From Ranitomeya imitator (taxonomy: Eukaryota), in the NCBI RefSeq assembly GCF_032444005.1, contig NC_091287.1:575608001-575672000 (forward strand): a DNA stretch of 64,000 bases. The letters run 5' to 3'. The stretch's first letter is position 1. Every line of letters begins with the position of its first letter. The notes under the pieces are model-generated. The model was not told the origin of the DNA. It did not search any database and worked only from the letters and a program-made list of their open reading frames with translations. The translations under genes were made by a program, and so were the position numbers. Of this stretch, positions 3,501-54,103 are shown piece after piece.

Positions 3501-6500
3501 ATTATAGGACTGTTCATTGTTTCTGTGCTATTATAGGACTGTTCATTGTTCCCCATGTTATTATAGGACAGAACATGGTGTCCCATGTTATTATAGGACA
3601 GGTCATCGTGCCCCGTGTTATTATAGGATGGGTCACTGTGCCCGTGTTATTATAGGATCGGTCATCATGCCCTGTGTTATTATAGGACCGGTCATTGTGC
3701 CGATATTATTATAGGACAGGTCCTCGTGCCCCGTGTTATTATAGGACCGGATATTGTGCCCTGTATTATTATAGGACCGGTCATTGTGATCCGTGTTATT
3801 ATAGGACCGGTCATCGTGCCCGATCTTATTAAAGGACCGGTGACGGCGCCCCATCTTATTATAATACCGGTGACCACGCTCAGTCTTATTATAGGACAGG
3901 TGACCACACCCTGTCTTATTATAATACCGATGACCACACCGTGTCTTATTATAGGACCAGTGACAGCGCCGTGTCTTATTATAGGACCGATGACAGCGCC
4001 CTGTCTTATTATAGGACCGGTGACAGCGCCCTGTCTTATTATAGGACCAATGACAGCGACCTGTCTTATTATAGGACCTGTGACAGCGCCCTGTCTTATT
4101 ATAGGACCAGTGACAGCGCCCTCTCTTATTATAGGACCGATGACAGCGCCCTGTCTTATTATAGGACCAGTGACAGCGCCCTGTCTTATTATAGGACCGG
4201 TGACAGCGCCCTGTCTTATTATGATACTGGTGATCACACCCTGTCTTATTATAGGACCAGTGACAGCACCGTGTTTTATTATAAGACCGGTGACAGCGCC
4301 CTGTCTTATTATAGGACCGGTGACAGCGCCCTGTCTTATTATAGGACCAGTGACAGCGCCCTGTCCTATAATAAGTGCCCTATAATAAGACAGGGTGCTG
4401 TCACCTGTCCTATAATAAGACAGGGCACTGTCACCGGTCCTATAATAAGACAGGGCGCTGTCACCGGTCCTATAATAAGACAGGGCACTGTCACCGGTCC
4501 TATGATAAGCGCTGGAGTCCTGGGTTCAAACCCCACCAAGGACAACATCTGTAAGGAGTTTGTATGTTCTCTCCGTGTTTGCGTGGGTCTCCTCCGGGTT
4601 CTCCGCTTTCCTCCCACATTCCAGAGACATACTGATAGGGAATTTAGATTGTGAGCCCCAACGGGGACAACGATGATAATGTGTGCAAACTGTAAAGCGC
4701 TGCGGAATATGTTAGCGCTATAAAAAATAAAGATTATTATTATTATAGGACTGGTGACAACACCCTGTCTTACTATAATACCGGTGACCACGCCCTGTCT
4801 TATTATAGGACCGGTGACCACGCCTTGTCTTATTATAGGACCAGTGACCACACCCTGTCTTATTATAGGACCGGTGACCACGCCCTGTCTTATTATAGGA
4901 TCGATGACCACTGTTGTGAATTCTGTGGCAGAGCTCCCTCCTGTGGTCACAAGTGGTACTTCGGCTGATTCTCTCTGTGAGCTTCCGTTGGTGGAGGAAA
5001 GTGGTACTGCGGCTTCTGAGTTTCCTTCCTCAGGTGATGTGGTGAAGTCGTTAGGTGCTGCTCTATTTAACTCCACCTAGTGCTTTGATCCTGGCCTTCA
5101 GTCAATGTTCTAGTATTGGACCTGTTTCCTCCTGGATCGTTCCTGTGGCCTGCTGCTCTGCATAGCTAAGTTCTGCTTTGCTATTTTGTTTGCTGTTTTT
5201 TTCTGTCCAGCTTGTCTATTTGTTTTTTCCTGCTTGCTGGAAGCTCTGGGACGCAGAGGGTGTACCTCCGTGCCGTTAGTTCGGTACGGAGGGTCTTTTT
5301 GCCCCCTTTGCGTGGTTTTTGTAGGGTTTTGTGTTGACCGCAAAGTTACCTTTCCTATCCTCGCTCTGTTCAGAAAGTCGGGCCTCACTTTGCTAAATCT
5401 ATTTCATCTCTACATTTGTCTTTTCATCTTAACTCACAGTCATTATATGTGGGGGCTGCCTTTTCCTTTGGGGTATTTCTCTGAGGCAAGGTAGGCTTAT
5501 TTTCTATCTTCAGGCTAGCTAGTTTCTCAGGCTGTGCCGAGTTGCATAGGGAGCGTTAGGCGCAATCCACGGCTGCCTCTAGTGTGGTTGGAGAGGATTA
5601 GGGATTGCGGTCAGCAGAGTTCCCACGTCTCAGAGCTCGTTCAATGTTTTTGGGTTATTGTCAGGTCACTGTATGTGCTCTGACCCCTATGTCCATTGTG
5701 GTACTGAATTACCTTATCATAACAGTACTGGAGGACCAAAGTACTAATGATTCTCAATAGAGGGAAAAAAGAAGTTCTGAGACCATTTTTTTTTCTTTGC
5801 ACTGTGTTTTGCCTTTTTTTTCCCCTAGACATTTGGGTGGTTCAGTACACAGGTGTAGTGATGGACATTAAAGGTCTGTCTTCACGTGTGGATCAGCTCA
5901 CGGCAAGAGTACAAAATATTCAAGACTTTGTGGTTCAGAATTCTATGTTAGAACCGAGAATTCCTATTCCTGATTTGTTGTTTGGAGATAGAACTAAATT
6001 TCTGAGTTTCAAAAATAATTGTAAACTATTTCTGGCTTTGAAACCTCGCTCCTCTGGTGACCCAGTTCAACAAGTTAGGATCATTATTTCTTTTTTACGT
6101 GGCGACCCTCAGGACTGGACATTTTCTCTTGCGTCAGGAGATCCTGCATTAAGTAATATCGATGCGTTTTTCCTGGCTCTCGGATTGCTGTACGATGAGC
6201 CTAATTCAGTGGATCAGGCAGAGAAGAATTTGCTGGCTCTGTGTCAGGGTCAGGATGAGATAGAGGTATATTGTCAGAAATTTAGAAAATGGTCCGTACT
6301 CACTCAATGGAATGAAGGTGCGCTCGCAGCTATTTTCAGAAAGGGTCTCTCTGAAGCCCTTAAGGATGTCATGGTGGGATTTCCTATGCCTGCTGGTCTG
6401 AATTAGTCTATGTCTTTGGCCATTCAGATCGGTCGACGCTTGCGTAAGCGTAAATCTGTGCACCATTTGGCGGTATTACCTGAGCTTAAACCTGAGCCTA

Positions 6501-9500
6501 TGCAGTGCGATAGGACTTTGACCAGAGTTGAACGGCAAGAACACAGACGTCTGAATGGGCTGTGTTTCTACTGTGGTGATTCCACTCATGCTATCTCTGA
6601 TTGTCCTAAGCGCACTAAGCGTTTCGCTAGGTTTGCCACCATTGGTACGGTACAGTCAAAATTTCTTCTGTCCGTTACCTTGATCTGCTCTTTGTCATCG
6701 TATTCTGTCATGGCATTTGTGGATTCAGGCGCTGCCCTGAATTTGATGGACTTGGAGTATGCTAGGCGTTGTGGGTTTTTCTTGGAGCCCTTGCAGTGTC
6801 CTATTCCATTGAGAGGAATTGATGCTACGCCTTTGGCCAAGAATAAGCCTCAGTACTGGACTCAGCTGACCATGTGCATGGCTCCTGCACATCAGGAGGT
6901 TATTCGCTTTCTGGTGTTGCATAATCTGCATGATGTGGTCGTGTTGGGGTTGCCATGGCTACAAGTCCATAATCCAGTATTAGATTGGAAATCCATGTCT
7001 GTGTCCAGCTGGGGTTGTCAGGGGGTACGTGGTGATGTCCCATTTCTGACTATTTCGTCATCCACCCCTTCTGAGGTTCCAGAGTTCTTGTCTGATTACC
7101 GGGATGTATTTGATGAGCCCAAGTCCGATACCCTACCTCCGCATAGGGATTGTGATTGTGCTATCGATTTGATTCCTGGTAGTAAATTCCCTAAAGGTCG
7201 ACTGTTTAATTTATCTGTGCCTGAGCACTCCGCTATGCGGAGTTATGTGAAGGAGTCCTTGGAGAAGGGGCATATTCGCCCGTCATCGTCGCCATTAGGA
7301 GCAGGGTTCTTTTTTGTAGCCAAGAAGGATGGTTCGCTGAGACCTTGTATAGATTACCGCCTTCTCAATAAGATCACGGTTAAATTTCAGTACCCCTTGC
7401 CGTTGTTATCTGATTTGTTTGCTCGGATTAAGGGGGCTAGTTGGTTCACCAAAATAGATCTTCGTGGTGCGTATAATCTTGTGCGTATTAAGCGAGGCGA
7501 TGAATGGAAAACTGCATTTAATACGCCCGAGGGCCATTTTGAGTATCTAGTAATGCCATTCGGACTTGCCAATGCTCCATCAGTGTTTCAGTCCTTTATG
7601 CATGACATCTTCCGAGAGTACCTGGATAAATTCCTGATTGTGTACTTGGATGACATTTTGATCTTCTCGGATGATTGGGAGTCTCATGTGAAGCAGGTCA
7701 GAACGGTGTTTCAGGTCCTGCGTGCTAATTCTTTGTTTGTGAAGGGATCAAAGTGTCTCTTTGGTGTTCAGAAGGTTTCATTTTTGGGGTTCATCTTTTC
7801 CCCTTCTACTATCGAGATGGACCCTGTTAAGGTCCAAGCCATCCATGATTGGACTCAGCTGACATCTCTGAAAAGTCTGCAAAAGTTCCTGGGCTTTGCT
7901 AATTTTTATCGTCGCTTCATCTGCAATTTTTCTAGTATTGCTAAACCATTGACCGATTTGACCAAGAAGGGTGCTGATGTGGTCAATTGGTCTTCTGCTG
8001 CTGTGGAAGCTTTTCAAGAGTTGAAGCGTCGTTTTTCTTCTGCCCCTGTGTTGTGCCAGCCAGATGTTTCGCTTCCATTCCAGGTCGAGGTTGATGCTTC
8101 TGAGATTGGAGCAGGGGCTGTTTTGTCGCAGAGAGGTTCTGATTGCTCAGTGATGAAGCCATGTGCCTTCTTTTCCAGGAAGTTTTCGCCTGCTGAGCGA
8201 AATTATGATGTGGGCAATCGAGAGTTGCTGGCCATGAAGTGGGCATTCGAGGAGTGGCGTCATTGGCTTGAAGGAGCTAAGCATCGCGTGGTGGTCTTGA
8301 CTGATCATAAGAACTTGACTTATCTCGAGTCTGCCAAACGGTTGAATCCTAGACAAGCTCGTTGGTCGCTGTTTTTTGCCCGTTTTGACTTTGTGATTTC
8401 GTACCTTCCGGGCCCTAAAAATGTGAAGGCGGATGCTCTGTCTAGGAGTTTTGTGCCCGACTCTCCGGGTTTATCTGAGCCGGCGGGTATCCTCAAAGAG
8501 GGAGTAATTGTGTCTGCCATCTCCCCTGATTTGCGGCGGGTGCTGCAAAAATTTCAGGCTAATAAACCTGATCGTTGCCCAGCGGAGAAACTGTTTGTCC
8601 CTGATAGGTGGACGAATAAAGTTATCTCTGAGGTTCATTGTTCGGTGTTGGCTGGTCATCCTGGAATCTTTGGTACCAGAGAGTTAGTGGCTAGATCCTT
8701 TTGGTGGCCTTCTCTGTCGCGGGATGTGCGTTCTTTTGTGCAGTCCTGTGGGATTTGTGCTCGGGCTAAGCCCTGCTGTTCTCGTGCCAGTGGGTTGCTT
8801 TTGCCCTTGCCGATCCCGAAGAGGCCTTGGACACATATCTCTATGGATTTTATTTCAGATCTTCCCGTCTCTCAAAAGATGTCAGTCATTTGGGTGGTCT
8901 GTGATCGCTTCTCTAAGATGGTCCATTTGGTACCCTTGTCTAAATTACCTTCCTCCTCTGATTTGGTGCCATTGTTCTTCCAGCATGTGGTTCGTTTACA
9001 TGGCATTCCAGAGAACATCGTTTCTGACAGAGGTTCCCAGTTTGTTTCGAGGTTTTGGCGAGCCTTTTGTGGTAGGATGGGCATTGACTTGTCTTTTTCC
9101 TCGGCTTTCCATCCTCAGACTAATGGCCAGACCGAACGAACCAATCAGACCTTGGAAACATATCTGAGATGCTTTGTTTCTGCTGATCAGGATGACTGGG
9201 TGTCCTTTTTGCCTTTGGCTGAGTTCGCCCTTAATAATCGGGCCAGCTCGGCTACCTTGGTTTCGCTGTTTTTCTGCAACTCTGGGTTCCATCCTCGTTT
9301 CTCTTCAGGGCAGGTTGAGTCTTCGGACTGTCCTGGTGTGGATACTGTGGTGGACAGGTTGCAGCAGATTTGGACTCATGTAGTGGACAATTTGACCTTG
9401 TCCCAGGAGAAGGCTCAACGTTTCGCTAATCGCAGACGCTGTGTGGGTCCCCGACTTCGTGTTGGGGATTTGGTTTGGTTATCTTCTCGTCATATTCCTA

Positions 9501-12500
9501 TGAAGGTTTCCTCTCCTAAGTTTAAACCTCGTTTCATTGGTCCGTATAGGATTTCTGAGGTTCTTAATCCTGTGTCTTTTCGTCTGACCCTTCCAGATTC
9601 TTTTTCCATACATAACGTATTCCATAGGTCATTGTTGCGGAGATACGTGGCACCTATGGTTCCATCTGTTGATCCTCCTGCCCCGGTTTTGGTGGAGGGG
9701 GAGTTGGAGTATATTGTGGAGAAGATTTTGGATTCTCGTGTTTCAAGACGGAAACTCCAGTATCTGGTTAAGTGGAAGGGTTATGCTCAGGAAGATAATT
9801 CCTGGGTCTTTGCCTCTGATGTCCATGCTCCCGATCTTGTTCGTGCCTTTCATATGGCTCATCCTGGTCGTCCTGGGGGCTCTGGTGAGGGTTCGGTGAC
9901 CCCTCCTCAAGGGGGGGGTACTGTTGTGAATTCTGTGGCACAGCTCCCTCCTGTGGTCACAAGTGGTACTTCGGCTGATTCTCTCTGTGAGCTTCCGTTG
10001 GTGGAGGAAAGTGGTACTGCGGCTTCTGAGTTTCCTTCCTCAGGTGATGTGGTGAAGTCGTTAGGTGCTGCTCTATTTAACTCCACCTAGTGCTTTGATC
10101 CTGGCCTCCAGTCAATGTTCTAGTATTGGACCTGTTTCCTCCTGGATCGTTCCTGTGGCCTGCTGCTCTGCATAGCTAAGTTCTGCTTTGCTATTTTGTT
10201 TGCTGTTTTTTTCTGTCCAGCTTGTCTATTTGTTTTTTTCCTGCTTGCTGGAAGCTCTGGGACGCAGAGGGTGTACCTCCGTGCCGTTAGTTCGGTACGG
10301 AGGGTCTTTTTGCCCCCTTTGCGTGGTTTTTGTAGGGTTTTGTGTTGACCGCAAAGTTACCTTTCCTATCCTCGCTCTGTTCAGAAAGTCGGGCCTCACT
10401 TTGCTAAATCTATTTCATCTCTACGTTTGTCTTTTCATCTTAACTCACAGTCATTATATGTGGGGGCTGCCTTTTCCTTTGGGGTATTTCTCTGAGGCAA
10501 GGTAGGCTTATTTTCTATCTTCAGGCTAGCTAGTTTCTCAGGCTGTGCCGAGTTGCATAGGGAGCGTTAGGCGCAATCCACGGCTGCCTCTAGTGTGGTT
10601 GGAGAGGATTAGGGATTGCGGTCAGCAGAGTTCCCACGTCTCAGAGCTCGTTCAATGTTTTTGGGTTATTGTCAGGTCACTGTATGTGCTCTGACCCCTA
10701 TGTCCATTGTGGTACTGAATTACCTTATCATAACAGACCACGCCCTGTCTTATTATAGGACCAGTGACCACGCCCTGTCTTATTGTAGGACCAGTGACCA
10801 CGCCCTGTCTTATTATAGGACCGGTGACCACGCCCTGTCTTATTATAGGACCAGTGACCACGCCCTGTCTTATTATAGGACCAGTGACCACGCCCATCTT
10901 ATTATAGGACCGGTGACCGTGCCCTGTCTTATTATAGGACCGGTGACCACGCCCTGTCTTATTATAGGACCGATGACCACGCCCTGTCTTATTATAGGAT
11001 CGGTGACCACGCCCTGTCTTATTATAGGACCGATGACCACGCCCTGTCTTATTATGACCAGTGACCATGCCCTGTCTTATTATAGGACCAGTGACCACGC
11101 CCTGTCTTATTATAGGACCAGTGACCACGCCCTGTCTTATTATAGGACCAGTAACCACGCCCTGTCTTATTATAGGACCAGTGACCACGCCCATCTTATT
11201 ATAGGACCGGTGACCGTGCCCTGTCTTATTATAGGACCGGTGACCACGCCCTGTGTTATTATAGGACCAGTGACCACGCCCTGTCTTATTATAGGACCGG
11301 TGACCACGCCCTGTCTTATTATAGGATCGGTGACCACGCCCTGTCTTATTATAGGACCAGTGACCACGCCCGTCTTATTATAGGACCATTGACCACGCCC
11401 TGTCTTATTATAGGACCAGTGACCACGCCCTGTCTTATTATAGGACCAGTGACCAAGCCCATCTTATTATAGGACCGGTGACCACGCCCTGTCTTATTAT
11501 AGGACCAGTGACCACGCCCTGTCTTATTATAGGACCGATGACCACGCCCTGTCTTATTATAGGACCAGTGACCATGCCCCATCTTATCATAGGACCAGTG
11601 ACCACGCCCTGTCTTATTATAGGACCGGTGTCCACGCCCTGTCTTATTATAGGACCAGTGACCACGCCCGTCTTATTATAGGACCAGTGACCACGCCCTG
11701 TCTTATTATAGGACCAGTGACCACGCACTGTCTTATTATAGGACCAGTGACCACGCCCATCTTATTATAGGACCGGTGACAACGCACTGTCTTATTATAG
11801 GACCAGTGACTACGCCCATCTTATTATAGGACCGGTGACCACGCCCTGTCTTATTATAGGACCAGTGACCACGCCCCATCTTATTATAGGACCGATGACC
11901 ACGCCCTGTCTTATTATAGGACCAGTGACCACGCCCCATCTTATTATAGGACCAGTGACCACGCCCGTCTTATTATGGGACCAGTGACCGTGCCCCATGT
12001 TCCTCACCTGTGGGGTTCCCCGGGTTGATGACGCAGAGCACGCGGGGGAGACATTGGTTTCTGGCTGCAGAGAGAGATTCTCGAATCCGGCTGACACTGA
12101 CGGCCCAGCCACGCGCCTCATCCAGGGAATATGGAAGCATGACTGCGCCAGACAGCACAATGGCGTCCATGTAAAGCGGATAATAGGGCACCGGGAGCAG
12201 AATCCCCGTCCTCAGCACTGCCTCACCATCCACCACCAGGGACAAGGCACTCTGCGGAAAAAAGAGCGTCAACTGATGGGAGTATTACTCCAAGCACTCA
12301 GTCTCAACCACCTCCAGAGCTGCACTCACTATTCTGCTGTTACATCGTGTCTTATCCTACAGTCACCTCCAGAGCTGCACTCACTATTCTGCTGTTACAT
12401 CGTGTCTTATCCTCCAGTCACCTCCAGAGCTGCACTCACTATTCTGCTGTTACATCGTGTCTTATCCTCCAGTCACCTCCAGAGCTGTAGTCACTATTCT

Positions 12501-24500: not shown

Positions 24501-27500
24501 CATTTCACATGGAAACTATTACACATATATATACTGCATAACGTTCTTGGTGCTGGGGGGTTCTGTAACAGGGCCATTTTATTTCCCATCGCTGTGCCAG
24601 TCTCCTGTAGATAGATCATCCTGTCAAACTCAAAGTAATTGTGGGTGAGGATGAATTTTATAAGTTTCACCACAGAATTTTCATCAGTCCCTGCATTTTC
24701 CAGGAAGAATTTGCAGGCATTTAATCCATCCTGGTGTGGGATATTGGAGTACAAAGATTCCACATCCATGGTGGCCAGGATGGTTCCTTCTGGTAGAGGA
24801 CCTATTGCTGATAGTTTATTCAATAGGTCGGTTGTGTCCTGAATGAAGCTGGGTGTATCCTTTACCAGGGGTTTAAGAATACCCTCTACCCACCCAGATA
24901 CCTGCTCAGTAAGGGTGCCCACACATGAAATAATTGGTCTTCCTGGGTTTCCAGATTTGTGGATTTTGGGAAGCATGTAGAATGTCCCTGTTCTTGGACT
25001 TTCAGGTATCAGGTCATTGGTTCTTATGGATTCTTCGGGCAGACAAGATACCAACTTGTTTAGTTCCTTGTAATAATCCTGTGTAGGATCCGACTCCAAT
25101 TTTTTGTAGTAGCGTGTGTCCATAAGTTGTCTGCTTGTTTCCCTCATATAGTCTGATGTGTTCATTGTGTTAATTAGTTTCTCTTTCCCATGCTATAATT
25201 AATCCCAGATGTTCCACGTGTAGACCTATTTCAAAGGAAGTCGAAGTGTCAGCTCTTCCCCAGTTATAGGTAATTTTCCCAATTCTCCATTTGCGCCATG
25301 TGAGGGGGATGTGTCTTACGGGTTTTCATTTTCTATTTGTTTGTTTCACCATGGTGTGTTGTGGAGCCATCAATCCAACAGGACAGGATCCATTGGGTTA
25401 CTTACACTCCTTCCTTTTTTGACTATCTTTGTTTTAACCTTTCATCCTGTGCTGCTTAGTGACGTTAGAGATCCGGTGCCTAATATTCTGGTATGTGATC
25501 CAGGATCTTATATTGTGCAGAGATCCATTATGTTATGTTTAGTTAGGGAATGTGTTAGATCCTTTTAAATAAAATTGGATGATATCGGCAAACCACATGT
25601 AACTAAAAAACCAGCACATTTTGGCCACAAGCCTTGTTCACACCACCTTTGCCAAAATGCCTTTTTTCTTTTTAAAGGAACTAATAAATGTGAAGTGTTA
25701 TCTACTTTTTCATTCTCTTTTTGTATATTGGGTTGCAGCCCTGACCTGGGCGTCTCTGTGCGGTGACCCCTTATTGCGATCCAAGTCCTGCCAGGTCTGG
25801 TGAGCCGACCTCCCTTTACATTCCCCCCCCCTTTCTATATTATGTCATATTGTGGTGGAGATCCAGTATTATTATTATTATTATTATTTATTTATATACA
25901 TCATTGATTCCATGGTGCTGTACATGAGAAGGGGTTACATACAAGTTACAAATATCACATACAGTAAACAAACTAACAATGACGGACTGATACAGAGGGC
26001 GAGGACCCTGCCCTTGCGGGCTTACATTCTACAGGATTATGGGGAAGGAGACAGTAGGTTGAGGGTTGCAGGAGCTCCGGTGTTGGTGAGGCGGTAGCTC
26101 CGGTGTTGGTGAGGCGGTAGCTCCGGTGTTGGTGAGGCAGTAGCTCCGGTGTTGGTGAGGCGGTAGCTTCGGTAGTGGTGAGGAGGCAGCGGGGTCAGTG
26201 CAGGCTGTAGGCTTTCCTGAAGAGATGAGTTTTCAGGTTCCGTCTGAAGGATCCGACTGTGGTTGATAGTCGGACGTGTTGGGGCAGAGAGTTCCAGAGG
26301 ATGGGGGATATTCGGGAGAAGTCTTGGAGGCGATTGGATGAGGAGTGAATAAGTGTGGAGGAGAGGAGGTCTTGGGAGGACCGGAGATCACGTGAGGGAA
26401 GATATCGAGAGATTAGTTCAGAGATATATGGAGGAGACAGGTTGTGGATGGCTTTGTAGGTCAGTATTAGCAATTTGAACTGGATACGCTGAGGGAATGG
26501 GAGCCAGTGAAGAGATTTGCAGAGGGGGGAAGCGGAGGAGTAGCGAGGAGAGAGATGGATTAGTCGGGCAGCAGAGTTAAGGATGGACTGGAGAGGTGCA
26601 AGGGTGTTAGCAGGGAGGCCACAGAAAAGGATATTGCAGTAGTCAAGGCGGGAAATGATGAGGGCGTGCACAAGCATTTTAGTAGATTGGGGGTTGAGGA
26701 AAGGACGGATCCTGGAGATATTTTTGAGCTGGAGGCGACAGGAGGTGGAAAGAGCTTGGATGTGTGGTTTGAAGGACAGGGCAGAGTCGAAGGTTACTCC
26801 GAGGCAGCGGACTTCGGGTACAGGGGAAAGCATGATGTCATTGACTGCGATAGATAGGTCAAGTAAGGAAGATTTATGTGATGGAGTTAAGATGATGAGT
26901 TCAGATTAGTAACAGTATGAGTAACAGTATCTGTTATTTCATGGTTACTGGGGCTGAAAAGTGAAGGGGGTCCATCGAGTTCTCCCTTTCTCCACCAGTT
27001 ATGGTTAGATCATTTATTACCCAAACTGCCGTGTGTTGTGAGACGCCTCCAGGCCTCCAATGAATGCTGATATAGTGTCGACCATCACTACCTCTTGTGG
27101 TCGGGATTCCACAGCCTGACGGCTCTAACTTTCCTATTTAGATACTTGTTGTGAATTCTGTGGTCAAGCTCCCTCCTGTGGTCATGAGTGGTACTTCGGC
27201 TGGTTCTGTCCATGAGCTTCCTCTGGTGGATGTGAGTGGGGCTGCGGCTTCTGAGTTTCCTTCCTCAGGTGACGAGGTTAAGTCGTTAGGTGCTGCAATA
27301 TTTAACTCCACCTAGTTCTTTGTTCCTGGCCTCCAGTCAATATTCCAGTATTGGTCTTGCTCTCTCCTGGATCGTTTTTGTGACCTGTATTCCCTGCATA
27401 AGCAAAGTTCTGCTTGTGTTACTTTTGTTTTTGCTATTTTTTCTGTCCAGCTTGCTATATTGGTTTGTCTTGCTTGCTGGAAGCTCTGGGACGCAGAGGG

Positions 27501-36631: not shown

Positions 36632-37368
36632 TTTAGGTTACCTTGCCACGTTGGACAGATCTGGCCCTGGTGTAGCTACATAAGAGTGAAGTGGTGAGTC
36701 AGAAGGAGTCAGAAGGAGATGTCTTTATCACCGAAAGAAGGTCGTGGGTTGGACCCTAGCAGTTGCTGTGGGGGACGAAGAGACGCCATTCCCGGAGTGG
36801 AGTGGACGGGTCATCCTTGATCAAATGGAAGTGGATGTGAAGGTTCTGGGCCCCGAGCGTGTGCAAGCAATAGAAACTATGCTGTGGGAAAATCAGGCTG
36901 CATTTGCCTGTCACGCCGAGGATTTCGGCTGTACTGAAGCCATCACGCATGAGATACCGACCGGGGAAGCTCGTCCAATTGGAGAACGATACCGGCAGAT
37001 CCCGCCCAAGATGTACCAAGAGGTGAAAACATTACTGAGGCAGATGCTGGATTCAGGAGTGGTGCAGAGAAGTCAGAGCCCTTGGGCAGCCCCGGAGGTG
37101 CTCGTCAAGAAAAAGGATGGGACCATCCGGTTCTGTGTAGATTACAAGAAACTCAATGCCTGCACTGTTCGAGACTCGGATCCGTTGCCCCGCATCGAGG
37201 AATCCTTGACAGCGTTGGGGAAAGCCAAGTACTTCTCCACCTTGGACCTGGCAAGTGGATACTGGCAAGTAGCCGTGGTAGAGAAAGACAAAGAGAAAAC
37301 TGCCTTCATCCTCCCTATGGGGCTGTTCGAGTTTAACCGGATGCCCTTCGGGCTCTCCAATGCTCCAG

Positions 37369-38989
37369 TGTTATGATCTGTTGGTTTAGGAACAACATGA
37401 GACAAGCTCTAAAGGAGGTGGTATCTGTACTGACCGCAAACCCTGAACCTAGCAGCGCAACTAAAAATAGCCGTGGGGGGTACCTGACGTTCCCTAGACC
37501 CCTCGGCACAGCCTAAGATCTAACTTCCCCTAAAGATGGAAACAGGAAACCTATCTTGCCTCAGAGAAAATCCCCAAAGGAAAGATTGCCCCCCACAAAT
37601 ATTGACGGTGAGAGGAGGGGAAAATAACATACGCAGAAATGAAATCAGATTTTAGCATAGGAGGCCAGTCTAGCTTGATAGATAGGACAGGAAAGGACAC
37701 TGTGCGGTCAGTATAAAAACTACAAAACAATCCACACAGAGTTTACAAAAATCTCCACACCTGACTAAAGGTGTGGAGGGTAAATCTGCTTCCCAGAGCT
37801 TCCAGCTAACAGAAATAATCCATACTGACAAGCTGGACAAATATAGAATGCACAGAACAATAAGTCCACAACATGTGGACTGAAATGAGCAAAGCCAGAA
37901 CTTATCTTTGCAGAACTGGTCAGGAAACCAGGAGAATCCAAGCAGAGATGTGAATCCAGCCAGGAAACATTGACAAGTGGCACAGGCTAAAGAAAGAGCC
38001 AGACTTAAATAGCCGAGCAGAAGAGACAATAAGTGGAGGCAGCTGATGACAGCTAACTCCAAGGAGCAGCCATACCTGTTATGATCAGGTAATTCAGCAC
38101 CACAATGGACATAGAAGTCAGAGCACATACAGTGACCTGACAATAACCCAAAAAACATAGAACGAGCTCTGAGACGTGGGAACTCTGCTGACCGCAATCC
38201 CTAATCCTCTCCAACACACACTAGAGGCAGCCGTGGATTGCGCCTAACGCTCCCTATGCAACTTGGCACAGCCTGAGAAACTAGCTAGCCTGAAGATAGA
38301 AAATAAGCCTACCTTGCCTCAGAGAAATACCCCAAAGGAAAAGGCAGCCCCCCACATATAATGACTGTGAGTTAAGATGAAAAGACAAACGTAGAGATGA
38401 AATAGATTTAGCAAAGTGAGGCCCGACTTTCTGAACAGATCGAGGATAGGAAAGGTAACTTTACGGTCAACACAAAACCCTACAAACAACCACGCAAAGG
38501 GGGCAAAAAGACCCTCCGTACCGACTAACAGCATGGAGGTACACCCTCTGCGTCCCAGAGCTTCCAGCAAGCAAGAAAAACAAATACGCAAGCTGGACAG
38601 AAAAAACAGCAAACAAAAATAACACAAGAGCAACTTAGCTATGCAGAGCAGCAGGCCACAGGAACGATCCAGGAGGAAGCAAGTCCAATACTAGAACATT
38701 GACTGGAGGCCAGGATCAAAGCACCAGGTGGAGTTAAATAGAGCAGCACCTAACGACTTCACCACATCACCTGAGGAAGGAAACTCAGAAGCCGCAGTAC
38801 CACTCTCCTCCACCAATGGAAGCTCACAGAGAGAACCAGCCGAAGTACCACTTGTGACCACAGGAGGGAGCTCTGCCACAGAATTCACAACACATACCAC
38901 TAGAAACCACAAGAGGGAGCCCAAGAGCAGAACTCACAAAAGTGCCACTTACAACTACCGGAGGGAGCCCAAGAGCGGAATTCACAACA
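37369..38989 (-). mobile_element. Chromovirus solo LTR (third subfamily) inserted in Gypsy RT
   Basis: TGTTATG...CACAACA on plus strand; TSD CTCCAG/CCCCAG; about 800 bp after removing the nested LTR. Confidence 0.92.
38077..38892 (-). mobile_element. Chromovirus solo LTR (element 1 type) nested in the previous solo LTR
   Basis: 816 bp, TSD CATACC, reverse-complement homolog of 4912-5724. Confidence 0.95.
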
Positions 38990-40775
38990 CCCCAGGCACA
39001 TTTCAACGGCTGATGGAAAAGTGTTTGGGAGACTTAAATTTTGAGGCTACCCTGATCTATCTGGATGACATCATTGTGTTTTCGGCTTCATTCGAAGAAC
39101 ACCTTGCCCGGCTTGGACAGGTACTCGGAAGACTGCGGGCTCATAACCTGAAGGTGAAGCCAAAGAAGTGCCACCTCTTCAAGAGAGAGATTGAGTACCT
39201 GGGCCACATAGTGTCACAAGATGGAGTTCTACCCTCGCCAGAAAAAGTGGCTGCTATCCAGAAGTGGCCAGTCCTTCAAACAGTGAGAGAACTCCAGGCC
39301 TTCCTGGGACTCACTGGGTACTACCGCCGGTTTGTTAAAGACTTTGCGAAGGTGGCGGGTCCTCTCAATGAGTTGCTGAGGGGGACCGCTGGAGTCGTGA
39401 AGACCCAGCGCATCCCCTGGGCACAGGAACAAGATGAGGCCTTTCAGGCTATAAAGAATGCCCTTACTTCAGCCCCGATTTTGGCCTACGCAGACTTTGA
39501 TCAACCGTTCCTGTTGTACACAAATGGTAGCCTTCATGGACTCGGTGCAGTACTTTCTCAGATACAGGATGGACATGAGAGAGTCATCGGGTATGCCAGT
39601 AGGTCCCTGCGAGACAGCAAAAGAAACCCTCACAATTACAGCTCCTTCCGGTTAGAGCTCCTGGCCCTGGTGTGGGCCATGACAGAAAAGTTTGCAGGCT
39701 TCCTGACAGATTCAAGTTCAAACGGACAATAATCCCCTGGCCCACCTTGAGAATGCTAAATTGGGGGCCTTAGAACAACAGTGGGTGGCTCGCCTAGCCA
39801 AGTTCGACTTTACCATCCATTATCGCCCTGCTACCGAAAACGCAAATGCTGATGGGCTGTCAAGAGTGACTGTGGAGACTCCAGTGGGGGATCTTGATGA
39901 GCAACTCGAAGAGGAGGAAACCCCAGACTTTCGCAAGTTTGAACCCCCAATGGTTGCAGCCCAGTCAAGAAGGGAGGCCTGCGCATTACCCCGCTCCCTG
40001 GGGAGAACCAATGTGGAATGGGGACACGTTCAGAATGAAAATGAAGGGCTGAGACAGATGAAATGGTGGGTAACGCAAAAGCAGAAGCCTGGCAAACAAG
40101 AGAGAAATGATCTGGACTCTGAAATGACGAGTGTGTTACACCAGTGGGATAGACTGGAGGAGCGAGAGTCAGTGCTATATCGTAAGAGGCAACAGCCAAA
40201 AGATATGGAAGTAAGGTGGCAAGTGGTCATCCCAGGAAGAGTGGCTCAAGAAGTAGCTAAAGAAGCCCACGAATTCGGAGCACACTTCGGCCCCACAAAG
40301 ACCTACCAATGGTTACAGCGGTATGTGTATTGCCCCGGGTTGGAGCTTGTGGTGGAAGAGGTTTGCCGGCAATGTCGAGTATGTGACCTCATTAAGAGTA
40401 CTGAACAGAGGGCACCCATCCAGACCATACAAACTAAGGAACCGCTAGAAGTCTTGATGATCAACTATCTCCTCGTGGCACACTCGCCCGGAGGCTAACA
40501 ATACTATTTGGTGATGACCGATCATTTCTCTAAGTTCGCAGTAGTCACTCCAACTAGAGACCAGACTGCGGAATCGGCGGCGCGAGCCATCTGTCAAGAC
40601 TTCATCCGGGTGTATGGGTGCCCAAAGCGCATCCACTCCGACCAAGGCGCATGTTTCCAAGGCAAGGTGATGGAAGAATTGTATCGCATGTATGGCATCG
40701 AGCGGTCCCGGACCACCCCTTACCACCCTCAAGGCAACGGAGCTTGTGAACGCTTCAACAGAACCTTACTTCAAA

Positions 40776-43700: not shown

Positions 43701-45546
43701 ATTACTTAGTTCTCTTAGTACTCGTGGGTGTATGCCATCCGGACCCGGAGATTTATCTATTTTAATCTTATTTAGCCGGTTTCGCACCTCTTCTTGGGTT
43801 AGATTGGTGACCCTTAATATAGGGTTTTCATTGTTTCTTGGGATTTCACCTAGCATTTCATTTTCCACCGTGAATACCGTGGAGAAGAAGGTGTTTAATA
43901 TGTTAGCTTTTTCCTCGTCATCTACAACCATTCTTTCCTCACTATTTTTTAAGGGGCCTACATTTTCAGTTTTTATTCTTTTACTATTGATATAGTTGAA
44001 GAACAGTTTGGGATTAGTTTTACTCTCCTTAGCAATGTGCTTCTCTGTTTCCATTGGTGACTTTAGTTAGGGCAGTTTCAGTTGAGTGATGGGAACGGAA
44101 GCCTGATTGTAACCGATCAAAGAGGGAGCAGGAGGAGAAGTGGGAGGACAGTTCAAGATGGACGTGTTGCTCCAGCAATTTGGAGGCATAAGGGAGAAGA
44201 GATATTGGGCGATAGCTAGACACAGAGGATGGGTCGAGGGAGGGCTTTTTGAGGATGGGTGTGATCTTGGCATGCTTGAAGGATGAGGGAAAGACACCTG
44301 TTGTGAGTGAGAGGTTGAAGAGGTGTGTTAGGGTTGGGATGAAGACCGTGGAAAGGTTAGGGATGAGGTGGGATGGGAGCGGGTCAAGCGTGCAGGTGGT
44401 GAGGTGTGATCTTGACAGGAGGGTGGAGAGCTGATCTTCTGTCATGGTGGAGAAGCTGGTTTTGGAGGAGCAGGGTTGAGCAGCTAAGAGGGGCAGTGGG
44501 CGCTGTGGGCCAAAGCTTTCTCTGATCGTATCGATCTTCTGTTTAAAGAAAGAGGCGAAGTCATCAGCAGAAATGAGGGGGGAGGGAGGAGGTGCGGGGG
44601 GACGGAGTAGAGAATTGAAAGTGTTGAAAAGCTGTTTAGGGTTGTGGGACAGGGAGGATATGAGGGATGAGAAGTAAGTTTGTTTTGCGGCAGTGAGCGC
44701 AGACTTGAAGCTGGCGAGGGACTGCTTGTATGCAGTGAAGTGGTCGGCAGAGTGGGATCGCTTCCATCTCCGCTCAGCAATCCTGGAAGCCCGTCTCAAT
44801 TCTTTGGTCAGGCTGGTCAGCCAGGGCTGCCTGTTAATTGTACGAGTTTTACTATGCATGAGTGGGGCGGCCGAATCGAGTGTTGTTGTTATTGTGGTGT
44901 TATAAAAAGTGGCAGCAGCATCTGTGTCATGAAGGGAAGCTATGTCTGTGAGAGGGAGAAGGGACTCAGAGAGTGATTGTAAGTTGAGATGTTTGAGATT
45001 TCTGCGAGGGTGAGTGAGTTTGTGGAGAGGGGGTTGCACACTAGGAGAGGAGAGGGACGAGAATGTCAGTAGGTTGTGGTCAGACAGGGGGAGGGGTGTG
45101 TTAGTGAGGTTAGTAAGGGAGCAGAGGCGGGTGAAGATGAGGTCCAGCGTGTGGCCATCTTTGTGAGTGGCCTCAGAGGACCATTGAGTGAGGCCAAAGG
45201 AGGCAGTCAGTGATAAAAGTTTAGAGGTAGCTGAGGTGAAAGTGTCAATGGGGACATTGAAATCACCCATGATGATAGTGGGGATGTCAACAGAGAGGAA
45301 ATGAAGTAGCCAGGTGGTGAAGTGGTCGAGAAAGGTGGAGATGGCTAGTTCTGGGGGGCGGTAGATGACAGCCAGCTGGAGGTTGGAGGGGGAATAGATG
45401 CGGACAGAGTGCACCTCAAACGAGGGAAGAGTAGCGGAGGGTGGTAGCGGGATTGGAGTAAAGGAGCAGGTGTCGGACAGGAGCAAGCCAACTCCTCCAC
45501 CGCGTTTGTTGCTGGGGCGAGGGGTGTGAGAGAGGTGGAATCCGCC
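40776..45546 (-). mobile_element. L2-clade LINE (APE C-terminus and RT), 5'-truncated, split by CR1
   Basis: IIMGDFN...TLDLIFT endonuclease; YRPISLL...GFRSHHSTETAL|DLLT...[11 protein letters not shown]...QGSVLGP...YADD; (AAT)n tail. Confidence 0.95.
42174..44051 (-). mobile_element. CR1 LINE, 5'-truncated, with 590-aa uninterrupted RT frame
   Basis: KSPGPDG, YRPVSLTS, DFSKAFD, QGSVLGP, FADD; (TTACTATG)n tail; CATT at both junctions. Confidence 0.96.
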
Positions 45547-47769
45547 AACGTTGGAGGAGGATAAGAAGGCGTGTTGGCCAGACTGTCTGCCAGAATTGGT
45601 CTGGACCTACAACAATCGGGTCCACTCCACCACGGGTTATACCCCCTATCTACTGTTGTTTGGAAGAGCTGGACGAGAGATCATCAAGCTGAATTTGGAA
45701 CAGCCAGAGGAGCTGATGGAGCGAACTGTCACCTCATGGGTAAAAGAGCATCGGCAACGATTGCAAACGATACGGCGGTTGGCGGGTCAGCAACTGCAAG
45801 AAAAAGAACATACGGGCCGCAAACCGACTCAAGAGTTACCGCTCCAACCTGGAGACCGAGTATTAGTCAGAGAGAAACGCCCTAAGGGAAAACTAAGTGA
45901 GAGATGGGAACTACAGCCATACAAGGTTATCGAGCGAGTGTATGCTAACGGTCCTGTCTGCAAGGTACAGATTGAGAATGGGGCATCCGTCCCTAGAGTA
46001 CTTCACAGAAATATGCTGCGGCCTTGCTGGTCTGAGGTCTCTTCTACGCCATTGTCACCTGAAGGTGCCACTCCACTTCCTGAATCTGTCATGCCTGATG
46101 GTGGAATCGATGATGAGTGGTGGACCGTCCCTGACACAGTAGGGGGTCCTCAGCTGCACGAGATGGTAATCCCATGGATGTACCAGTACCGCCATGCGAG
46201 GACGAGACCAGACAAGAGCTCACAATGTTTCCTGCAACAAGTGTTCCTCTGGAAGATAGTCAAGCCTTGCCTGACAGGCAAGAGCTTCGGAGATCCCAGA
46301 GGTCTAATGCAGGGGTTTCACCAGTCCGATAAATAGAACAGTGTGCTCTGTCTGTTTTTACACCTTTGTTGCCTCCTCTATAGTTGCTGTTCCGCATTGC
46401 ACGTTCCTTCATTACGCTTCCACCTTGATTCTGTGATGGTCGAGAACCACCATCATTAAGAAGGGAGGCATGTAAGAGGGTAGTGCTGTTATGGACAGTA
46501 ACACGCTGCAACTTTCAGAGACAGCACCCCCTTGTCTGGTACGATGGAATGTCCTGCTTCCCCCTGCTAGACGGTGAAGATAAACTGCCCTAGGATGAGG
46601 GGAGGAGTTGAGCCTGAACTGTGCGTGTGAGCTGAAGCTGCAAGAGAGAGAGAACTTTGTGCTGTTTGCTACAAGAAAAGTCCCACAGCTTGGGATGAAG
46701 TTTACTTGTGAAATTTGCAAGACTTTTTTTGGATACAGCAAAGGTGGCTGTCCTGTGCTAGTTTGTGAAGCCACGAAGATACTGAGAAAGGGACTTACAG
46801 TTTCCAGGAGCATACCTAGGATCCAGAAGCTATGAGAAGACCACGTTTCACAGAGCTGACAGAAAGCCGTGCACACCATCATATTGGACTTCTGGGGGCC
46901 CCCTGCGACTGGACCTGATTCTCCAACATCACCGTGAGTCTGTTCCTGTTTGGTGCACCTGTTAGGGCCTAGTGCAGGCTTCAGTAGTCAGTACATGGGA
47001 GCCGTGTGGCCTGCTTAGTAAAGGCCAGGGAGGTTATACATAGAGTAGCATCGTTATTTGTTAATTGTTTAAACTTGCTTGCGAGACATATTCTGGGTCT
47101 GTAATAGTTGTAGCACTGTGCTATTTTACAGGAGAGATTACACATGTACATTGTCTTTTGCCATTGTAAACCCTTGTTTGCATCTTCCTCATTCCCTTCA
47201 TTCCTTGCCTTCTAATAAATCAACCCTTTGTTGTTTGCACCTCATCTTGTGTACAGTAGTCTTCCTGCACAGTGGTGGTCCCCCGGCCATCACTTCACGC
47301 ATATTTCACAGCCAGTGCAGCAATATACTCTGTGCCATATTACAACTCTATCTATTTTTTATTCTAAAAATTATTTTAAAAAATATTTTTTGTGCTATTT
47401 TTTCATTAGTTTAGTGTTACCTAGGTCTGTTTGTGTGTATGGTGCTTGGGTTTTGGTGTGGGTAGATTTAGGGTCCTATCAGGGCCAGAAGGGACAGCAG
47501 ACGTTGAGTGGGGGCGCCACATCGAAATTTAGGGTGCCAACCTCCGCTGTCAGGAAGGTGTGAGTCCATTAGGGATCAAGATAGGGACTTATTCAGGAAT
47601 ATTACTTTTAAGAGTTCCTGCTGCATTCCGGGTATAGCAACACCCCACCCAGGCTATAGGTTTTTGGTGTTGGTAGTTATTCATTTTTTTCTAAAAAATT
47701 TGTTTCAATTTTAATTATATTTACATTAAAGATATTTTTAAGGGCGTTTTTCTTTTGTTTTTTTTATGT

Positions 47770-49119: not shown

Positions 49120-52100
49120 TGTTATGATCTGGTGGCCTTGGAGCAGCATGAGACGTACTCTGGAGAAGGTGGTCCCTGTACTGACCGCAAACCCTGAACC
49201 TAGCAGCGCAACTAAAAGCAGCCGTGGGGGGTACCTAACTCTCCCTAGACCCCTCGGCACAGCCTAAGATCTAACTACCCCTAAAGACAGAAACAGGAAA
49301 CCTATCTTGCCTCAGAGAAAATCCCCAAAGGATAGATAGCCCCCCACAAATATTGACGGTGAGAGGAGAGGGAAATAACATACGCAGATATGAAATCAGA
49401 TTTTAGCATAGGAGGCCATACTAGCTAAAAAGAAAGAATAGAACAGTGTACTATGCGGTCAGTACAAAAACACTAGAAAATATCCACCGCAGAAAATACG
49501 GATCACCACATCTGACTAAAGACATGGGGGGTATATCTGCATCTCCAGAGAAATAGCTAGGCTGCAAAAAATCCTTCACAGACCAAGCTGGACAAGACAA
49601 AAACATGAAAATGCACAGAACTATAAGGTCCACTGCAGGTGGACAGAAAAAACAAAGCCAGGACTTATCTTTGTAGAAAAACACAGCAAACTGGAGAGAC
49701 CAGCAGGGAAGTGAATCCTTCAAGAACAATGGACAACTGGCACTGATTAAAGGATCCTGCAAAGCTATATACCCCAGTCAGTTTTGCAATTAGTAGATAC
49801 ACCTGTCCACTCCTGCAATCCAGGCACAACTGCATTACCCTCTACAACCACCGGAGGGAGCCCAAAAGCTGAATTCACAACAGTACCCCTTCCTTGAGGA
49901 GGGGTCACCGAACCCTCACCAGAGCCCCCAGGCCGATCAGGATGAGCCCGATGAAAGGCACGAACCAAATCAACGGCATGGACATCAGAGGCAGAAACCC
50001 AAGAATTATCCTCCTGGCCATAACCCTTCCACTTGACAAGGTACTGAAGCTTCCGCCTCGAAAAACGAGAATCCAAATTTCAACAACATATTCCAACTCC
50101 CCATCGACCAATACAGGGGCCGGAGGATCAACAGAGGGAACAACGGGCTCCACATATTTCCGCAACAAAGATCTATGGAAGACATTATGAATAGCAAAAG
50201 AAGCCGGAAGCGCCAGGCGAAAGGACACCGGATTAATAATCTCAGAAATCCTATAAGGACCAATAAATCGAGGCTTAAACTTAGGGGAAGAAACCTTCAT
50301 AGGAACATGACGGGAAGATAACCAAACCAGATCCCCAATCCGAAGGCGGGAACCAAAGACAAAGACAAAGAAGGCCACCAAAAGGACCTACTAACCAAAT
50401 CTCTGGTACCAAAAATCCCAGGATGGCCAGCCAACACAGAACAATGAACCTCAGAAATCACTTTAGTAGTCCATCTATCAGGAACAAACAGCTTCCCCAC
50501 AGGACAGCAGTCAGGCTTATCAGCCTGAAATTCCTGAAGAACCCGTCGCAAATCAGGGGAGATGGCAGAAAGAATCACCCCTTCCTTCAAAATGCCGGAC
50601 CGGCTCAAGAACCCCAGGGGAATCAGGAAAAAAACTCCTAGAGAGGGCATGCGCCTTAGCATTCTTAGTACCAGGAATATACGAGACCACAAAATCAAAA
50701 CGGGAGAAAAACAGGGACCATCGAGCCTGTCTAGGATTCAGCCGTTTGACAGACTCGAGGTAAATCAGATTCTTATGATCAGTCAGGAGCACGATACGGT
50801 GCTTGGCCCCCTCAAGCCAATGTCGCCACTCCTCAAATGCCCACTTCATAGCCAACAACTCCCGATTGCCGACATCATAATTGCGTTCCGCAGGCGAAAA
50901 CTTCAGAGAAAAGAAGGCACACGGTTTCATCAAGGAACCATCAGAATTCCTCTGAGACAAAACGGCCCCTGCCCCAATCTCAGACGCGTCAACCTCAACC
51001 TGAAATGGAAGAGAAACATCTGCCTGACGCAACATAGGGGCAGAAGTAAATCGATGTTTAAGCTCCTGAAAGGCAGAAACAGCCGCGGAGGACCAATTTG
51101 TCACATCAGCGCCTTTCTTGGTCAAATCGGTTAGAGGTTTAACCACACTGGAGAAGTTGGCAATGAAACGATGATAAAAATTAGCAAAGCCCAAGAATTT
51201 CTGAAGGCTCTTCACAGATGTGGGCTGAATCCAATCATGAATGGCCTGAACCTTAACCGGATCCATTTCTATAGATGAGGGAGAAAAAATGAAACCCAAA
51301 AAAGAAACCTTCTGCACTCCAAAGAGGCACTTTGACCCCTTCACAAACAAAGCATTATTACGGAGGATCTGAAATACCATCCTGACCTGTTTCACATGAG
51401 ACTCCCAATCATTGGAAAAAATCAAAATATCATCCAAATATACAACCATGAATTTATCAAGATAACTCCGAAAGATATCATGCATGAAGGATTGGAACAC
51501 AGATGGGGCATTAGAGAGTCCGAATGACATCACAAGGTATTCAAAATGGCCTTCGGGCGTATTAAATGCAGTTTTCCATTCGTCACCCTGCTTGATACGA
51601 ATAAGATTATATGCCCCTCGAAGGTCAATCTTAGTAAACCAGCTAGCCCCCTTAATCCTAGCAAACAAATCAGTAAGCAAAGGCAAGGGGTATTGAAATT
51701 TAACCGTGATCTTATTCAAGAGGCGATAATCAATACAGGGTCTCAAGGAGCCATCCTTCTTGGCAACAAAAAAGAACCCCGCTCCCAACGGTGAAGAAGA
51801 TGGCCGAATATGCCCCTTCTCCAAAGACTCCTTAATATAGCTCAGGCACAGACAGGTTGAAAAGTCGGCCCTTAGGGAACTTACAACCTGGAATCAAGTC
51901 AATAGCACAATCACAGTCCCTATGCGGTGGAAGGGAACTGGACTTGGGCTCATCGAATACATCCTGAAAGTCTGACAAAAACTCAGGAACTTCAGCAGAG
52001 GGGGAAGAGGAAATTGACATCAAAGGAACCTGATCATGAACCCCCTGACAACCCCAACTAGTCACAGACATGGATTTCCAGTCTAACACCGGATTATGTA

Positions 52101-54103
52101 GCTGTAACCATGGAAAACCCAGCACAATATCATCATGCAAATTATGCAACACCAGAAAACGACAATCTTCTTGATGGGCTGGCGCCATGCGCATGGTCAG
52201 CTGTGTCCAAAACTGAGGTTTATTTTTAGCCAACGGTGTAGCATCAATGCCCCTCAAAGGAATAGGGTTCTGCAAAGGCTGCAAGGGAAAACCACAACGT
52301 CTGGCAAATTCTAAGTCCATTAAGTTCAGAGCGGCGCCTGAATTCACAAATGCCATGACAGAAAATGACGATAATGAGCAGATCAAGGTCACAGATAATA
52401 GAAATTTAGGTTGTATAGTACTGATGGCAACAGAACTAGCGATTCTCTTAGTACGCTTAGGGCAATCAAAAATAACATGAGCAGAATCGCCGCAGTAAAA
52501 ACACAACCTATTCTGACGCCGGAATCTTTGACGTTCAGCTCTAGACAAAATCCTATCACACTGCATAGGCTCAGGGCTTCGCTCAGAGGGCAACGCCACA
52601 GTGTGCACAATTCTGCGCTCGCGCAAGCACCGATCAATCTGAATGGCCAGAGACATAGAGTCACTCAGACCAGCAGGCGTGGGGAACCCCACCATAACGT
52701 CTTTAACGGATTCAGAAAGACCCTTTCTGAAAATTGCCGCCAAGGCATCCTCATTCCATTTAGTTAGTACAGACCATTTTCTAAATTTCTGGCAATACGA
52801 TTCTGCCGCTTCTTGACCTTGACACAGGGCCAACAAGATTTTCTCAGCTTGATCCACAGAATTAGGCTCATCATACAACAACCCCAATGCCTGAAAGAAC
52901 GAATCAACATCAAGCAAAGCAGGATTGCCAGTTTCCAGGGAAAATGCCCAATCCTGTGGGTCACCACGCAGCAGAGATATGATGATTTTAACCTGCTGAA
53001 TAGGATCACCAGAAGACCGGGGTCTTAATGCAAAAAACAGTTTACAGTTATTTTTGAAACTCAAAAATTTGGATCTGTCACCAAAGAAGAAATCAGGAGT
53101 GGGAATCTTAGGTTCTAAGGCAGGAGTTTGAACAATATAATCTGAAATACCCTGTACCCTAGCAGCAAGCTGATCCACCCGAGAAACTAATTCCTGAATA
53201 TTCATGTTAATACAAGACTCCGTAGCCACCCAGAGGTAAAGAGGGAGGAACAGACCATACAGGCTAAGGAAAAAAAAATGGCTCAAAATCTTTCCACCCT
53301 TCTTCCGAGATGCAATTAACTCATTGTTGGCCAGTTGTACTGTTATGATCTGGTGGCCTTGGAGCAGCATGAGACGTACTCTGGAGAAGGTGGTCCCTGT
53401 ACTGACCGCAAACCCTGAACCTAGCAGCGCAACTAAAAGCAGCCGTGGAGGGTACCTAACTCTCCCTAGACCCCTCGGCACAGCCTAAGATCTAACTACC
53501 CCTAAAGACAGAAACAGGAAACCTATCTTGCCTCAGAGAAAATCCCCAAAGGATAGACAGCCCCCCAAAAATATTGCCGGTGAGAGGAGAGGGAAATAAC
53601 ATACGCAGATATGAAATCAGATTTCAGCATAGGAGGCCATACTAGCTAAAAAGAAAGAATAGAACAGAGTACTATGCGGTCAGTACAAAAACACTAGAAA
53701 ATATCCACTGCAGAAAATACGGATCACCACATCTGACTAAAGACATGGGGGGTATATCTGCATCTCCAGAGAAATAGCTAGGCTGCAAAAAATCCTTCAC
53801 AGACTAAGCTGGACAAGACAAAAACATGAAAAAGCACAGAACTATAAGGTCCACTGCAGGTGGACAGAAAAAACAAAGCCAGAAATCATCTTTGTAGAAA
53901 AACACAGCAAACTGGAGAGACCAGCAGGGAAGTGAATCCTTCAAGAACAATTGACAACTGGCACTGATTAAAGAGTCCTGCAAGGCTATATACCCCAGTC
54001 AGTCCTGCAATTAGTAGAAACACATGTCCACTCCTGCAATCCAGGCACAACTGCATTACCGTCTACAACCACCGGAGGGAGCCCAAAAGCTGAATTCACA
54101 ACA
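49120..54103 (-). mobile_element. Chromodomain Ty3/Gypsy element 2, defective
   Basis: 763-bp LTRs 53341-54103 and 49120-49882 (about 20 differences), TSD GGCACC, PPT; frameshift at about 51830, integrase-core deletion at about 50350-50380, frameshifts near 50575 and in the chromodomain. Confidence 0.96.

Follow-up and report, generated by a model that had tools for sequence, protein, structure and literature searches.

Primer-binding sites matched to the long terminal repeats in Ranitomeya imitator chromoviruses suggest self-priming of the Tf1 type

The 64,000-nucleotide (nt) stretch of Ranitomeya imitator DNA analyzed here (NC_091287.1, positions 575,608,001 to 575,672,000; the window) contains two long terminal repeat (LTR) retroelements that have both LTRs, element 1 on the plus strand and element 2 on the minus strand. 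An earlier annotation of the window, the sequence-only reading, had proposed that these elements prime reverse transcription without a tRNA, since the primer-binding site (PBS) behind each 5′ LTR is complementary to a 9-mer in that LTR. We followed up this proposal in the window (Table 1) and across the 5.96 Gb of genome searched. These data indicated that the chromoviruses, whose PBS is complementary to their own LTR 9-mer, very probably use as primer a 5′ end cleaved from their own RNA, in the manner of Tf1.

Both window elements are Ty3/gypsy chromoviruses. They have TG...CA LTRs, a target duplication, and a polypurine tract (PPT), and the Pfam domains follow the order gag-protease-reverse transcriptase (RT)-RNase H-integrase, with a weak protease match that falls below the cut-off. 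In element 1, the gag, RT, RNase H, integrase, and chromodomain matches all exceed their Pfam cut-offs, the chromodomain (PF00385) at the integrase C terminus scoring 50.1 bits versus a cut-off of 25.1, and a CCHC motif was read off the Gag translation. A Pfam profile search did not find an integrase-core match in the element 2 gag-pol. The best relative of solved structure is Ty3 Gag-Pol (E = 2e-137), and Gag itself gave no significant match to solved structures (PEG10 at the top, E = 0.46). Related copies encode single frames of up to about 1,460 amino acids. Judged by chromodomain, host type, and PBS, the radiation is probably a member of the Tf1/sushi group. A target duplication of 5 bp is usual for chromoviruses. 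Among 34 elements, comprising those of the window and loci L220 to L328 (L numbers denote fetched loci, a few of which here are duplicates), the target duplication was an exact 6 bp in 27, 5 bp in 1, and absent in 6; the 6-bp form is seen at element 1 (4906-4911/10736-10741) and at a solo LTR (27141-27146/27961-27966). A 6-bp duplication has been recorded in 0.4% of plant LTR elements (PMC6317226; this and all other papers are cited from the portions available to us).

The ends of the elements define where priming would begin. A G-run, a T, and AC lie ahead of the 3′ LTR and GT lies behind the 5′ LTR, giving symmetric 2-nt extensions at both ends; integrases trim 2 nt. Because this GT/AC symmetry fixes the register, the 3′ end of the primer would have to pair with base 5727 of element 1, and the sequence from that base begins ACT or ACA, not TGG. 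Thus, the statement that neither element has a TGG PBS holds for the priming register, but out of register the two elements do contain TGG, 4 and 7 nt behind the LTR. The five motif and PBS positions given in the sequence-only reading (GCCTTCAGT, GCCAGTTGT, GCCACTTGT, ACTGGAGG, and ACAACTGGC; Table 1) were all confirmed, as was the full 9/9 pairing of ACAACTGGC with GCCAGTTGT in element 2. The 8/8 match given for element 1 reads as described but represents a decayed case, since its relatives pair over 9 to 11 nt; the ninth PBS base and one base of the 5′ LTR deviate from those relatives, and the three other family-1 LTRs of the window (motifs at 10104, 27329, and 38710) carry GCCTCCAGT. Similarly, the solo LTR placed at 37369 exists, but it extends from 38989 to 37369 and is split by a family-1 LTR at 38892-38077.

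Table 1. Coordinates of the LTR elements and their parts in the window
Feature	Position	Strand	Remark
Element 1, whole	4912-10735	+	Both LTRs present
Element 1 5′ LTR, TG...CA, 813 bp	4912..5724	+	3 mismatches and 1 gap versus 3′ LTR
TATA-like box TATTTAA, element 1	5064..5070	+	From sequence; putative function
Predicted self-primer (first 9 nt of RNA) GCCTTCAGT	5094..5102	+	One base off the 3′ LTR copy
GT spacer, element 1	5725..5726	+	Mirror AC ahead of 3′ LTR at 9920-9921; sets priming register
Element 1 PBS, starting ACTGGAGG (5727-5734)	5727..5735	+	8/9 complementary to 3′ LTR motif
PBS positions 10-12, element 1	5736..5738	+	Near-invariant C, then hotspot (in relatives)
Element 1 gag-pol	5861..10090	+	Retrotrans_gag, CCHC motif, RT, RNase H, integrase, SH3, chromodomain
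Stop breaking element 1 gag-pol	6404-6406	+	Within gag-pol
Chromodomain, element 1	about 9710-9853	+	Pfam
PPT, element 1	9909..9918	+	From sequence
Element 1 3′ LTR	9922..10735	+	Motif GCCTCCAGT at 10104-10112; 6-bp target duplication GACCAC
Solo LTR, 85% to family 1	27147..27960	+	Motif GCCTCCAGT at 27329-27337
Third-subfamily solo LTR, split by family-1 LTR	37369..38989	-	Motif GCCACTTGT at 37981-37973
Family-1 solo LTR nested in third-subfamily LTR	38077..38892	-	Motif at 38710-38702
Element 2, whole	54103-49120	-	Both LTRs present
Element 2 3′ LTR	49120..49882	-	Motif GCCAGTTGT at 49741-49733, then CCAT
Element 2 gag-pol, three open reading frame (ORF) pieces	49905..53484	-	About 790 bp shorter than element 1
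Element 2 PBS ACAACTGGC	53330..53338	-	9/9 complementary to own LTR motif
Element 2 5′ LTR	53341..54103	-	Motif GCCAGTTGT at 53962-53954; 21 mismatches versus 3′ LTR
Element 2 target duplication GGTGCC, 6 bp	54104-54109/49114-49119		

The third subfamily is represented in the window only by its LTR, for which the PBS ACAAGTGGC had been predicted. An LTR end followed by GT and ACAAGTGGC was found 3,662 times genome-wide, versus 0 for a reversed control. In all 30 ACAAGTGGC loci fetched, the third-subfamily LTR was the best of the four window references, two of them at 98% identity. The loci provided 29 distinct junctions, four of which lacked an anchor and were left out of the pairing count; in the remaining 25, whose promoter site could be located, the PBS pairs 9/9 in 21 and with one mismatch in 4.

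A general junction pattern (LTR end, GT, AC, five free bases, GC) was then matched 62,114 times in the genome versus 41 times in a control, and a hand count of the first 100 matches revealed 12 PBS types. For pairing analysis, we located the LTR site by weight matrices blind to the five variable bases and to the PBS, in a nonrandom set of 259 junctions that mixes unbiased matches with those from targeted searches; 236 were anchored. Among the 12 common PBS types, 158 of 175 copies pair 9/9, compared with a mean of 24 and a maximum of 42 in 10,000 shuffles. Since the shuffle ignores kinship, substitution events are the better measure: it takes at least 14 substitutions to connect 14 matched types, every one with its counterpart on the opposite side, and 12 of the 13 steps from type to type involve one change only. 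In a fifteenth family, whose gag is about 71% to element 1, GCCTGGCAA goes with the PBS TTGCCAGGC in 13/13 loci, and there the otherwise fixed end of the 9-mer is altered as well, with pairing kept. Thus, the genome-wide check called for by the earlier proposal yielded fifteen matching LTR/PBS pairs, and its picture of four variable positions changing together gave way to one in which five positions vary among the common types, more in the fifteenth family, mostly in single steps. As for the promoter context, the 9-mer lies 30 nt past the first T of the TATA-like box for each of the motifs in the window, as had been described, and in 193 of 206 anchored copies, with 31 nt in the other 13 (spacings of 29 to 31 nt were searched); the CAAT said to follow it in every LTR is present in only 156 of the 206 copies, and in the window the element 2 3′ LTR has CCAT instead.

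Of the 17 common-type copies that fall short of 9/9, 16 have a single mismatch; in the other, the 5′ LTR bears a family-1 motif and the downstream LTR matches. In 7 copies whose 5′ LTR motif is mismatched, the downstream LTR motif fits the PBS, fully or 8/9 (window element 1). When rare PBS variants were sought on purpose, full pairing was observed in 4 of 61. Amplified PBS types are thus matched and sporadic mutants mostly unmatched.

Several junctions were unusual in arrangement. At least 16 LTR-PBS junctions at a spacing of about 3,970 bp (G000:C1:24173238-24232789) form a tandem array of one element, and shorter runs at about 5-kb spacing occur elsewhere (L187-L189). Integrase-independent tandem insertion, which has been reported for Tf1 (PMC11042837), may account for the array, or else later duplication. 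Some copies (L244 and L067) have a short duplication of the LTR end and spacer ahead of the PBS, and the junction-like matches at L256 and L073 turned out not to be 5′ LTR-PBS junctions.

In the mechanism that we propose for these chromoviruses, transcription would start at the G 30 nt past the TATA box, RNA nucleotides 1 to 9 would anneal to the PBS, which lies about 620 nt farther downstream, and RNase H would cut after nucleotide 9, so that the new 3′ end could prime minus-strand DNA. The finding of the predicted third PBS, the 15 matched pairs, and the lack of a CCA-type tRNA site in register all lend good sequence support to such Tf1-type self-priming. When 23 leaders hand-picked to span the types were folded (no shuffled control), the duplex had a probability of at least 0.89 in 20, and a short helix with the LTR end, whose letters are invariant, appeared in 10 of the 23 minimum-free-energy folds. 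RNA from four sequencing runs gave cover and no starts, which is not evidence either way on the start site.

Some points weigh against this proposal. The transcript start and the cleavage are predicted rather than observed, 23 of the 259 junctions were dropped for want of an LTR anchor, and in a few copies (L254, L310, L315, and L318) the PBS mismatches both LTRs. The duplex probability fell below 0.5 in 3 of the 23 folded leaders. A three-duplex "pretzel" has been described for the Tf1/sushi group (bioRxiv 10.1101/2022.12.06.519325, PMC6317226, PMC4600332); the third pretzel helix, with the PBS 3′ flank, was indistinguishable from controls here (-7.5 kcal/mol for own versus -7.0 for cross pairings). 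The stretch from TATA box to primer has a 10-bp complement in the PBS 3′ flank that is strong in some copies, with -13 kcal/mol in 2 of the 23 and about -12 in 2 more (L080, L241, L246, and L192); as most copies do not show it, it was rejected as a common trait.

A further pattern concerns the bases directly behind the 9-mer. A C occupies PBS10 in 148 of 150 copies, even though the opposing LTR base, just ahead of the primer, is a T in 103 copies and unable to pair. On three trees, no site examined took as many parsimony steps as PBS11, which required 31 to 35, and 27 to 31 steps in the aligned leader versus a median of 6. In a young family-1 subfamily with 1,620 matches, a hand count of the first 100, some of which are tandem duplicates, showed variation at PBS10 to PBS14 in 0, 36, 8, 0, and 0 copies, respectively, with PBS11 alleles of A in 17, G in 12, and T in 7. 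On a tree of 30 young family-1 copies, PBS11 required 12 steps (14.6 when shuffled), and none of the 1,629 other columns exceeded 9. A cluster with TCCTT showed 8 variants among 13 copies, indels included, and the fifteenth family varies at the hotspot in 4 of 13, its position 10 being fixed by the search pattern. Another subfamily, whose primer is preceded by T (4,333 matches), showed variation at PBS10 to PBS14 in 1, 5, 4, 1, and 0 of 100 copies by hand count.

RT is known to add C opposite an RNA cap. We lean, by a little, toward the explanation that the invariant C and the hotspot are the footprint of RT running off a capped 9-nt self-primer, with the PBS rewritten from the primer in each cycle. 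Plus-strand synthesis would copy the capped self-primer back into the PBS, and RT would add C opposite the cap plus one or two nontemplated bases, which would sometimes become fixed at the second strand transfer. Such copy-back with added bases would explain the invariant C, the hotspot, and the single-step change on two sides. If the PBS is rewritten in this way, a single mutation and a single mismatched generation suffice for a "compensatory" change. The sequence-only reading was right that both sides change in a matched manner, but its term compensatory may mislead, since the primer is probably the template of the PBS. About half of the Tf1 cDNA retains PBS DNA at its 3′ end and its RT adds nontemplated bases (PMC11042837, PMC3185545), and additions by Moloney murine leukemia virus RT favor C (94, 83, and 57% over three positions; PMC3877366).

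The footprint explanation faces difficulties of its own. The hotspot is weaker, at the same place, in the subfamily with T before the primer (Fisher P = 3e-4 on the hand counts), and PBS11 variation was not found in the 30 loci of that subfamily that were fetched. Parsimony trees and aligned columns showed no matching hotspot at the predicted LTR cleavage site. As the hotspot sits at the boundary of a C run and an A run, slippage could yield its A alleles, though not G and T (19 of 36). Finally, healed chimeras, with a type A PBS in type B flanks, were sought by eye on three trees and none was clearly established. A 4-nt CAGT duplication at the predicted cleavage site (L061, L063, and L064) was considered as a strand-transfer scar and rejected, because it is confined to the 5′ LTR and the three loci share their flanks; it is one event within a segmental duplication.

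A possible, if in our judgment somewhat doubtful, alternative accepts self-priming and attributes the match to two independent mutations and selection, with the PBS10 C as a conserved cis element and the hotspot otherwise caused, e.g., by slippage. Selection alone is enough to explain why sporadic PBS variants are mostly unmatched (57/61), and the position of the hotspot at a homopolymer boundary and its weakness in one subfamily fit this account. It is countered by the occurrence, in four separate groups, of all three alternative bases and indels exactly where a capped 9-nt primer would end, by the steep drop in variation (36, 8, and then 0 of 100), and by the retention in Tf1 of copied PBS DNA at the cDNA 3′ end (PMC11042837).

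The earlier suggestion that the primer-PBS pair acts as a subfamily barcode, taken here to block priming or recombination between subfamilies, is not supported and appears unlikely. All amplified types are matched, and a large clade mostly holds to one type, as a barcode would have it; however, a given type can turn up in clades that are separate, sister types are mixed together inside clades (CAGTT/CAGTA and CACCT/CAGCT), the links between types are nearly all single changes, and a barcode would be needless if, as we infer, priming takes place within one molecule. On gag, R-U5 (repeat and unique 5′ region), and U3 (unique 3′ region) trees of 150 copies, the PBS required 19 to 20 changes for 14 states, the primer 21 to 26 changes for 17 states, and both jointly 26 to 27. 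The PBS types mark lineages loosely, with no sign that they isolate them.

We regard it as very unlikely that a genuine pairing has no role beyond RNA folding, packaging, or end-to-end joining, priming itself taking another route. The RNA carries the 9-mer in its 3′ R as well, and the priming step is itself one that we infer, but the helix begins at the TATA-predicted start and stops at precisely the base from which DNA synthesis must set out, 2 nt from the LTR and symmetric with the end of the PPT. Priming by a host tRNA or tRNA fragment, with the LTR match a structural helix or a coincidence, is the least credible reading: TGG lies a few bases inside 8 of 14 PBS types, but it is in register in none of the 14, a register wrong for a CCA end, 6 have no TGG in their first 12 nt, 15 PBS types would demand 15 host RNAs, none tied to the LTR, and no recovered tRNA matched better than 7/9, in a comparison that covered Lys and Pro tRNAs only (63 scored family matches, the loci giving 9 distinct tRNAs, 8 Lys and 1 Pro). 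A large tRNA gene array with a spacing of about 1,008 bp was noticed at G000:C4:660779745-661262960, where the fetched loci are tRNA-Lys(TTT).

Self-priming as such is not new; it has already been described for the Tf1/sushi group, vertebrates included. The elements described here resemble Tf1 and Tf2 of Schizosaccharomyces pombe and Tj1 of S. japonicus, chromodomain Ty3/gypsy elements with a PBS complementary to the 5′ end of the RNA. The first 11 nt of Tf1 RNA pair with the PBS and are cut by RNase H (PMC7175516, PMC4600332), compared with a duplex of 9 nt here (10 to 11 in some copies), and Tf1 is known by experiment, whereas our elements are known from sequence alone. Their Gag has a CCHC motif, unlike that of the fission-yeast elements, and they appear single-frame, whereas the nonyeast members mostly use a -1 frameshift (bioRxiv 10.1101/2022.12.06.519325). 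Self-priming has been called a common feature of the Tf1/sushi group, including its vertebrate members (bioRxiv 10.1101/2022.12.06.519325 and PMC6317226, both of which cite Butler et al. 2001). Sushi and Amn-san, compared here by description only, are likewise vertebrate chromoviruses; Amn-san, at about 5 kb and with a chromodomain, is the most abundant frog LTR element, with about 780 copies in Silurana (PMC4131045) versus the 62,114 junctions found here, and the predominance of a 6-bp target duplication is a further difference from both. Self-priming has also been predicted from LTR-PBS complementarity for Tcn1-clade chromoviruses and for plant TAR elements, which live in other hosts and, in the case of TAR, belong to Ty1/copia; the available portion of that survey reports no within-genome covariation series (PMC6317226). 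Three further papers serve as context only (PMC2864245, PMC3601003, PMC5006619). Our literature search, from which subscription journals were mostly absent, found no paper on a within-genome covariation series or on a hotspot behind a self-primed PBS. Butler's 2001 study may already show covariation across vertebrate elements. What is new here is the scale of the covariation, the 6-bp target duplication, and the probable footprint of the primer end.

Other repeats crowd the window. A 30-bp minisatellite flanks element 1 (473-4910 and 10696-11860) with a short inverted block at 4379-4509, and further minisatellites lie at about 12.5-14.2, 28-32.5, 47.7-48.9, 55.5-58.5, and 62.7-63.8 kb. The third-subfamily LTR at 37369-38989 adjoins an RT fragment of another LTR element (36690-37376), indicating nested insertions. 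Other mobile remains, at 16662-26905, 34045-34773, and 38695-45606, include a Tc1-like transposase, a GIY-YIG/RT piece (Penelope-like), a SCAN-domain ORF, a long interspersed nuclear element with endonuclease and RT, and a gypsy-type element in which an ORF with an integrase zinc finger precedes RT, an order which we take to be Gmr1-like. A repeat of about 290 bp, present in three copies 99% identical (35966-36255, 42177-42461, and 61451-61740), is probably a young short interspersed nuclear element or miniature inverted-repeat transposable element.

In the literature available to us, self-priming of vertebrate chromoviruses has so far been inferred from complementarity, the experiments having been done on yeast Tf1, and the present series, 15 matched variants from a single genome with about 62,000 copies, gives it unusually strong comparative support. 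If the footprint explanation is true, the priming sequence drifts one base at a time and repairs its own match, and an interaction between two sites evolves in single steps. The end of the primer would then be located without RNA data, and DNA alone could diagnose self-priming and the primer 5′ end in any high-copy LTR family.

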